From Escherichia phage FL31: a DNA stretch of 64,000 bases. Under the pieces are notes generated by a model. That model ran no database searches, had not been told where the DNA came from, and saw only the letters and a program-made list of their open reading frames with translations. Positions 63,201 to 64,000 of the stretch are shown here, piece after piece. The position numbers and the translations under genes were made by a program. Position 1 is the stretch's first letter. Each line of letters starts with the position of its first letter. Location: the sequence record PP400782; one strand, given 5' to 3'.

Positions 63201-63585
63201 TCAGGCAAATGATAGTTATTCAACGTTTGTCCGTGATGTTTATGTCCGTTCTGATATTCGTGTTAAAAAAGACCTTGTTAAATTTGAAAATGCTTCTGAG
63301 AAGCTTTCTAAAATTAACGGTTACACTTATATGCAGAAGCGAGGCCTAGATGAAGAAGGTAATCAGAAATGGGAACCTAACGCCGGTTTGATAGCTCAAG
63401 AAGTTCAAGCTATTTTGCCTGAATTAGTTGAAGGTGACCCTGATGGCGAAGCTTTACTTCGTTTGAACTATAACGGTGTAATTGGTTTAAATACAGCTGC
63501 AATCAATGAGCATACTGCAGAAATTGCGGAACTTAAATCAGAAATTGAAGAACTTAAAGCATTAGTTAAATCATTGTTAAAATAA
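60274..63585 (+). CDS. 37: long tail fiber distal subunit gp37 with C-terminal self-cleaving intramolecular chaperone domain
   Basis: 1103 aa; Gly/Thr/Asn-rich fibrous repeats; C-terminal 111 aa carry the S(x)4K autoproteolysis motif (SDIRVK) followed by a coiled-coil. Confidence 0.9.
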
Positions 63586-63589
63586 TAAG

Positions 63590-63605
63590 AGGGGCTTCGG
63601 CCCCT
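63590..63605 (+). other. intercistronic C(UUCG)G hairpin between genes 37 and 38
   Basis: AGGGGC-UUCG-GCCCCU, then GGAGG SD and the gene 38 ATG. Confidence 0.55.
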
Positions 63606-63616
63606 TGGAGGTTTAT

Positions 63617-64000
63617 ATGGCAGTAACAGGACCATGGGTAGGATCGTCTGCAGTAGTTAATACAGGACAAAATTGGATGGGTGGCGCGGCCCAACGATTA
63701 AGAATGGGCATTCCGTTTTGGATGAGTAATATGATAGGTCGATCTGTTGAAATAATTCACACGCTTGGAGCAGACCATAACTTCAATGGCCAATGGTTCC
63801 GAGATAGATGTTTTGAGGCAGGTAGTGCACCTATAGTGTTTAATATCACTGGAGATTTAGTATCATATTCTAAAGATGTTCCTTTATTCTTCATGTACGG
63901 AGATACACCAAATGAATATGTTACTTTGAATATTCATGGTGGAGTTCATATGTGGGGACGAGGTGGTAACGGTACTGTAAACGGAAACCCAGGTACAAAT
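63617..64000 (+). CDS. 38: gp38 tail-fibre adhesin (T2-type), 3'-truncated at window edge
   Basis: Hand-translated from ATG 63617: [28 protein letters not shown]...[57 protein letters not shown]..., close to recalled T2 gp38; no stop before the window end. Confidence 0.8.

Follow-up and report, generated by a model that had tools for sequence, protein, structure and literature searches.

How does the long tail fibre of Escherichia phage FL31 end: in a gp37 tip that sheds a C-terminal chaperone domain and is capped by an adhesin, gp38, or in a T4-type tip for which gp38 serves only as an assembly factor? We addressed this question on a stretch of 64,000 nucleotides (PP400782; hereafter the window), where positions 63250–64000 form the 3′ end of the long-tail-fibre gene cluster on the + strand. 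The module encoded there is very probably the usual distal tip of a T-even long tail fibre with an adhesin cap ("T2-type" or "S16-type"), here in an RB69-like phage. This reading is borne out by homologous domains, by the conservation of catalytic and docking residues, by purifying selection and by gene order. Such a tip module is already known, having been described between 1986 and 2018: T2 gp37 processing, the mechanism of the chaperone domain and the gp37–gp38 structure have all been published, and identical or near-identical relatives are present in public databases.

The product of gene 37 matched phrog_1699, "long tail fiber protein distal subunit", with E = 0. Its extreme C-terminus, the 111 residues from Ser993 (encoded at 63250–63252) to the stop codon, follows an S16-like β-helical tip and starts with SDIRVKKD, so that Ser993, Asp994 and Lys998 stand at the very beginning of the domain, with the Ser-x4-Lys spacing already pointed out in an initial annotation made from the sequence. 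That annotation had proposed a Peptidase_S74-like domain, and the profile search bore this out: against Pfam PF13884 (Peptidase_S74, "Chaperone of endosialidase"), for which the cut-off is 22 bits, the 111-residue piece scored 54.6 bits (E 1.3e-14) and the full-length gp37 48.4 bits; the match begins at profile position 1. In a sequence search of the PDB, residues 914–1103 of the full gp37 aligned with the gp37 chain of phage S16 (6F45_A, E 2.5e-43), and the 111 residues alone aligned with the same chain end to end (E 2.2e-32). A profile built from the gp37 tails of the window, T2, T6 and RB51 additionally matched the autoprocessing domain of human myelin regulatory factor (MYRF; 7DC3, E 2.5e-9) and a phage tail fibre (8JOV, E 3.5e-8), aligning the SD-x-R-x-K signature with ADLRAK in 7DC3, SDERLK in 8JOV and SDRRIK in S16 gp37. 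The PDB matches of the domain were limited to these three proteins, as neither the single sequence nor the four-sequence profile retrieved the endosialidase or T5 fibre chaperone structures. Judged by these homologies, the tail of gp37 is an intramolecular chaperone domain of the S74 type.

At the other end of the domain, the coiled-coil suggested initially was recovered as a heptad pattern, the last 20 residues of gp37 placing I, L, I, L, V and L at a/d positions over three heptads, presumably the part of the chaperone domain that forms a trimeric helical bundle. Modelled by AlphaFold from the single sequence, this stretch lay inside a predicted helix spanning residues 67–110 of the domain, confidently modelled only from about residue 91 onwards, where the block means of pLDDT (predicted local distance difference test) were 90–93.

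We then considered how the domain is conserved among relatives, using 54 related loci from viral contigs found with two seed patterns. Ser-Asp-x3-Lys was kept in every intact locus, about 80–117 residues before the stop codon. One of the two seeds was the cleavage motif itself, so the Ser/Asp conservation is in most loci partly a matter of ascertainment; the Lys position was in neither seed, and we placed the weight on this residue and on loci with unrelated preceding sequence. Four such loci (L018, L021, L027 and L060), all found through the motif-free seed, keep the motif in the contexts ...TAY^SDVRVK, ...TAF^SDKRLK, ...TAF^SDERLK and ...SYT^SDARFK, respectively (^ marks the bond preceding the motif serine). 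Within the window, T2, T6 and RB51 tails the pattern VY[VI]R-SD-x-R-[LV]-K is invariant, while elsewhere these tails are only 31–37% identical. Codon comparisons of the chaperone domain yielded 6:0, 8:1 and 14:2 synonymous to non-synonymous differences against RB51, EC128 and RB69, respectively, and for the preceding 111 gp37 codons 32:27 and 29:26, the ratios in the domain indicating purifying selection. Two further observations were made in this set. T6-like NDVYIR^SDSRLKIN tails occur on many contigs of ~18–45 kb (L028, L035–L059), and the arrangement of a cleavable tip with an adhesin evidently extends beyond T-even phages. The 155-kb contig IMGVR_UViG_2974741249_000001 (L013) carries a closely related domain (76% over the part that aligned) with the reading frame broken just upstream, which leaves the Ser-Lys motif out of frame, owing either to an error in sequencing or to pseudogenisation of the end of gene 37.

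A spacer of 31 nt separates the gene 37 stop codon from the ATG of gene 38, of which the window holds the first 128 codons. Residues 1–40 of its product matched Gp38_N (PF21721) with 77.5 bits (E 7.3e-22; cut-off 25), and residues 45–126 matched GP38 (PF05268) with 116.9 bits (E 1.5e-33), covering profile positions 1–83 of 218. The same fragment matched phrog_2056, "tail fiber protein; host specificity" (9e-64), the gp38 receptor-binding construct of phage PP01 (9V85, E 8e-47) and, over residues 1–126, S16 gp38 (6F45_D, E 6e-30). Trp7, Trp20 and Trp35 aligned to the tryptophans of S16 gp38, which PMC6851490 describes as prongs inserted into pockets of the gp37 trimer. When the 128-residue fragment was compared with the T4 gp38 chaperone by BLASTP, similarity was absent, the best alignment having E = 17 over 9 residues, and a T4-type assembly chaperone as the product of gene 38 was thereby ruled out. 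On these alignments, gene 38 is an adhesin gene and not a T4-type chaperone gene, as the initial annotation had held. At E-values such as these and those of the gp37 domain, the matches are not due to chance. Its description of gp38 as close to the T2-type adhesin stands for the class but not for the allele, residues 1–40 being 48% identical to T2 and 58% to T6, and 100% identical to RB51 and OES_C-3. Where it took this module to determine receptor specificity, the gp38 loops that specify the receptor lie past the window end: the window stops within the first glycine-rich motif, the remainder of gp38 continuing beyond position 64000, and with the hypervariable receptor loops, set between glycine-rich motifs, starting at about this point the choice of receptor cannot be read from the window alone. 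RB51 and RB69 gp38, identical to the window over the last 28 residues present, carry the full set of glycine-rich motifs.

As for the expression of the module, two exact copies of the T4-type late-promoter consensus TATAAATA lie upstream of genes 34 and 36, and the exact-match scan detected no further copy from 59582 to the window end and none before gene 37 or gene 38. The late transcript of genes 36, 37 and 38 therefore probably starts at the 59575 promoter. Between genes 37 and 38, directly abutting the gene 38 Shine-Dalgarno sequence, we found the C(UUCG)G hairpin that had been noted before (GAGGGGC-UUCG-GCCCCUU); a 61-nt stretch around it has a folding energy of −17.8 kcal/mol (z = −2.1). 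T4, T2, RB51, EC128 and OES_C-3 have the hairpin at this junction too, and T6 has a UUU-loop variant of it. Scanning the window for C(UUCG)G stem-loops with stems of at least 5 bp retrieved 11 (5–9 bp), four on the + and seven on the − strand, and no Rfam family matched anywhere in the window at gathering thresholds. The CUUCGG hairpins were reportedly first noticed in T4 intercistronic regions by Tuerk et al. in 1988. The hairpin, which the initial annotation had noted ahead of gene 38, is a generic feature and no specific part of the tip module. Several of the 11 stem-loops are near-identical to each other, the one at 16076–16093 (AAGGGGCTTCGGCCCCTT) almost matching the sequence of the 37/38 hairpin, and the one at 59548–59569 sits between gene 35 and the late promoter at 59575.

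Given its G+C-rich 7-bp stem and UUCG loop, the hairpin might instead be a rho-independent terminator splitting genes 37 and 38 into separate transcription units, as some relatives carry the annotation "terminator" at this junction and the terminator scan called a terminator-like site here on the minus strand. That call was made on the minus strand only; the coding-strand stem runs into GGAGGTTTATATG, without a T-run, and no terminator was called there, so that on this strand the candidate was ruled out. A terminator would also leave gene 38 promoterless, since the late-promoter consensus is absent from the interval between the hairpin and the ATG, and similar intercistronic stem-loops number 11 in the window, this one included. 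We therefore regard termination at this site as unlikely. Quite improbable, too, is a role as a conserved recombination joint for swapping adhesin or chaperone cassettes: in T4 the coding sequences flanking the hairpin are unrelated to those of the window, and the hairpin itself has nearly the same sequence in T4, T2, RB51 and the window, but this likeness may reflect motif constraints alone, as the window contains 11 very similar hairpins. In the reading we prefer, genes 36-37-38 would probably be transcribed from the late promoter at 59575, and the 37/38 hairpin would be a generic, very stable T4-type intercistronic stem-loop rather than a coding-strand terminator; these roles of promoter and hairpin we infer.

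Considering the maturation of gp37, the window site DVYVR^SDIRVKK aligned with DLNVS^SDRRIKK of S16 and DVYIR^SDGRLKI of fPS, the latter being the Yersinia phage site that Salem et al. aligned with that of S16 (PMC7917993). For S16 gp37 the same source, summarising the structure paper, reports that once the trimer has formed the intramolecular chaperone, made up of the last 113 residues, cuts itself off between two serines and that the gp38 docking surface is thereby exposed. The proteolytic shortening of mature gp37 that the initial annotation had predicted agrees with this and with the work on T2 cited in PMC3157838. By analogy, gp37 of the window would be made as a 118.5-kDa precursor, whose last 111 residues would trimerise via the C-terminal helix and template the folding of the preceding trimeric β-helix. 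The Ser993/Lys998 dyad would then cut Arg992–Ser993, freeing the chaperone fragment and leaving a mature gp37 that ends in ...DVYVR; for a cut at this bond we computed products of 992 residues (106.2 kDa) and an acidic fragment of 12.3 kDa. Residues 914–992 are predicted to become the docking surface for gp38 once exposed. The tip would be capped by one gp38 copy, in a 3:1 gp37:gp38 stoichiometry that we likewise infer. The N-terminal three-helix attachment domain of gp38 would put Trp7, Trp20 and Trp35 into the gp37 trimer pockets, and its C-terminal glycine-rich sandwich, encoded outside the window, would present the receptor-binding loops.

The autocatalytic nature of this cut would follow from the same analogy. 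Alternatively, a host or phage protease could remove the chaperone domain, the module itself being non-catalytic; the original T2 work, as cited in PMC3157838, spoke only of "proteolytic processing" of gp37 (Drexler, Riede and Henning 1986), and sequence alone is no proof of catalysis. With Ser and Lys at the x4 spacing in every intact relative, a dyad aligned with the Ser/Lys positions of both S16 gp37 and the MYRF autoprocessing domain, and autocleavage reported for S16 (PMC7917993), we consider an external protease very improbable. Scarcely credible is a fibre that retains the chaperone domain uncut, with gp38 acting only as an assembly factor as in T4, since the database names "distal long tail fiber assembly catalyst" or "chaperone" that several records give to homologous gp38 are inherited from T4, whose gp38 shows nil similarity (E = 17), since gp38 here matches solved adhesins including the PP01 receptor-binding domain and has the attachment-domain Trp residues, and since an uncut chaperone domain would cover the docking surface known from S16 according to PMC7917993.

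Autoprocessing of gp37 followed by capping with the gp38 adhesin thus remains our preferred account, against which several points weigh. The PF13884 match extends over residues 993–1052 only, the first 60 of the 111, and 6F45_A was matched through its deposited sequence, not through its coordinates. The single-sequence AlphaFold2 model of the 111-residue domain was poor, with a mean pLDDT of 65 and a predicted template modelling score of 0.36; being implausibly all-helical, it was left unused as a model of the whole domain. Cleavage of the window's gp37 is extrapolated from its homologues, and a glycine-rich receptor-binding domain of gp38 is likewise deduced, from 257-residue relatives identical at 120–127 of the 128 residues present. 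This account identifies the fibre tip of an RB69-like phage as adhesin-capped, which is useful for annotation and host-range work, predicts a 106-kDa mature gp37 together with a released 12.3-kDa fragment, and directs any engineering or sequencing aimed at receptor specificity to gp38. The features of the locus are compiled in Table 1; every element of the initial annotation lies at the position that it had given.

Table 1. Features of the long-tail-fibre locus and C(UUCG)G stem-loops in the window.
Feature	Position	Strand	Basis or remark
Late-promoter consensus TATAAATA (second copy), upstream of gene 34	54541–54548		Exact-match scan
Gene 34	54583–58416	+	1277 aa
Gene 35	58425–59549	+	374 aa
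T4-type late-promoter consensus TATAAATA, upstream of gene 36	59575–59582	+	Exact-match scan
Gene 36	59609–60265	+	218 aa
Gene 37, long tail fibre distal subunit precursor	60274–63585	+	1103 aa, 118.5 kDa; open reading frame list
Distal β-helical tip, gp37 residues 914–992, ending ...RDVYVR	63013–63249	+	Aligned to 6F45_A residues 27–92
Predicted scissile bond Arg992/Ser993	63247–63252	+	Aligned to S16 and fPS sites
Intramolecular chaperone/Peptidase_S74 domain, gp37 residues 993–1103	63250–63582	+	111 aa, 12.3 kDa; PF13884, 6F45_A
Heptad-repeat helix, gp37 residues 1084–1103 (last 20)	63523–63582	+	a/d pattern in sequence; aligned to S16 gp37 helix
Tandem stops TAA TAA of gene 37	63583–63588	+	Sequence
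Intercistronic C(UUCG)G hairpin, 7-bp stem	63589–63606	+	Fold; abuts gene 38 Shine-Dalgarno sequence
Shine-Dalgarno sequence GGAGG, 5 nt 5′ of gene 38 ATG	63607–63611	+	Sequence
Gene 38, T2-class tail-fibre adhesin	63617–64000	+	First 128 codons, no stop before window end; relatives 257 aa
gp38 N-terminal attachment domain, residues 1–40, Trp7/Trp20/Trp35	63617–63736	+	Gp38_N, 40/40 profile positions
gp38 central domain and start of first glycine-rich motif, residues 45–126	63749–63994	+	PF05268, 9V85
Stem-loops 1–6	12720–12739, 16076–16093, 19469–19486, 30539–30556, 34489–34510, 35435–35454		C(UUCG)G scan
Stem-loops 7–11	44081–44094, 51261–51278, 59291–59306, 59548–59569, 63589–63606		C(UUCG)G scan

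Adhesin-type gp38 proteins are variously labelled "distal long tail fiber assembly catalyst", "long tail fiber assembly chaperone" or "tail protein and peptidase" in databases, the adhesin gp38 of RB69 (AY303349, 10535–11308) being one that bears such a T4-style label. These labels are a wrong carry-over from T4, unfit for the adhesin gp38 family.

As a correction to the initial annotation, the phage backbone is, by sequence identity, that of an RB69-like Mosigvirus and not of T2 or T4: over its first 24 kb the window shows 98% identity to the RB69-like phages vB_EcoM_G2469, mar005P1 and APCEc01, and the whole fibre locus is 95.6% identical to RB69. The closest relatives change along the fibre genes. 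Residues 1–650 of gp37 are closest to RB69 (94–100%), and residues ~650–1000 to OES_C-3 (~100%), diverging from RB69 (50–84%). The chaperone domain is identical in OES_C-3 and RB51 and differs at two codons in RB69, with 35% identity to T2 and 31% to T6. Residues 1–101 of gp38 are closest to OES_C-3; from codon ~102 onwards gp38 is closest to RB51 and RB69 and diverges from OES_C-3. Residues 41–113 are 89% identical to T6. The locus is thus a recombination mosaic at window positions 62200–63250 (gp37 ~650–992) and 63920–64000 (gp38 codons ~102–128), and the same fibre-tip module is common to two genera, Mosigvirus and Tequatrovirus (OES_C-3).

Among individual systems, RB69, RB51, OES_C-3 and EC128 (AY303349, FJ839693, PQ642264 and ON210139, respectively) are nearest, with gp37 of equal length (1103 residues) and chaperone domains 98–100% identical to that of the window; over residues 1–128, the gp38 proteins of RB69, RB51 and EC128 match at 120–127 of 128 positions, with 127 identical in RB51 and 120 in RB69. 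RB69 and RB51 are reported to require OmpF plus FhuA and a full lipopolysaccharide core (PMC3157838), which for the phage of the window is only a lead. In EC128 (4217–4990) the gp37 tip is that of the window, the last 80 mature residues being 100% and the chaperone domain 99% identical, and the gp38 attachment domain has T6-like residues at positions 30–44, with 85% identity to the window over residues 1–40. This mixed pair indicates that the pairing of gp37 tip subtypes with gp38 N-terminus subtypes, reported to be one-to-one, tolerates some variation. T2 gp37 and PP01-type gp38 are reported to be incompatible (PMC12892980), in line with distinct pairing types (PMC3157838).

S16 (PDB 6F45; Dunne et al. 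2018, Structure 26:1573) shares with the window the β-helical gp37 tip, a chaperone domain of ~111–113 residues starting with SDxR[IV]KK, and a gp38 whose attachment domain has three Trp residues and is followed by a central β-helix. The two differ by one insertion of ~11 residues in the gp37 tip, by the residue preceding the cleaved serine, which is Ser in S16 (DLNVS^S) and Arg in the window (DVYVR^S), and possibly in host and receptor loops. T2 and T6 (Drexler, Riede and Henning 1986; Trojet et al. 2011) likewise have a processed gp37 C-terminus and a gp38 adhesin cap and keep the VYIR^SDxRLK site, whereas their chaperone domains show the low identities given above. The endosialidase, the T5 L-shaped fibre and MYRF belong to PF13884 as well, a Ser-x4-Lys likewise opening a C-terminal domain that closes with a helical bundle; the domain of the window, in contrast, serves a fibre that is later capped by a separate adhesin. 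T4 has the same gene order, 34-35-36-37-38-t, the UUCG hairpin at the same junction and a gp37 homologous to that of the window over residues 1–640 only (35% identity). In contrast to the window, however, T4 gp37 lacks the S74 domain and has its own receptor-binding tip, and T4 gp38 is an unrelated chaperone.

Finally, upstream of the tip, residues 450–550 of gp37 (61621–61923) match Pfam PF21446, Gp34_trimer, at E 1e-7 and, at E 1.9e-12, the structure solved for the C-terminus of T4 gp34 (4UXE), so that a homologous domain is common to the distal and proximal half-fibres.

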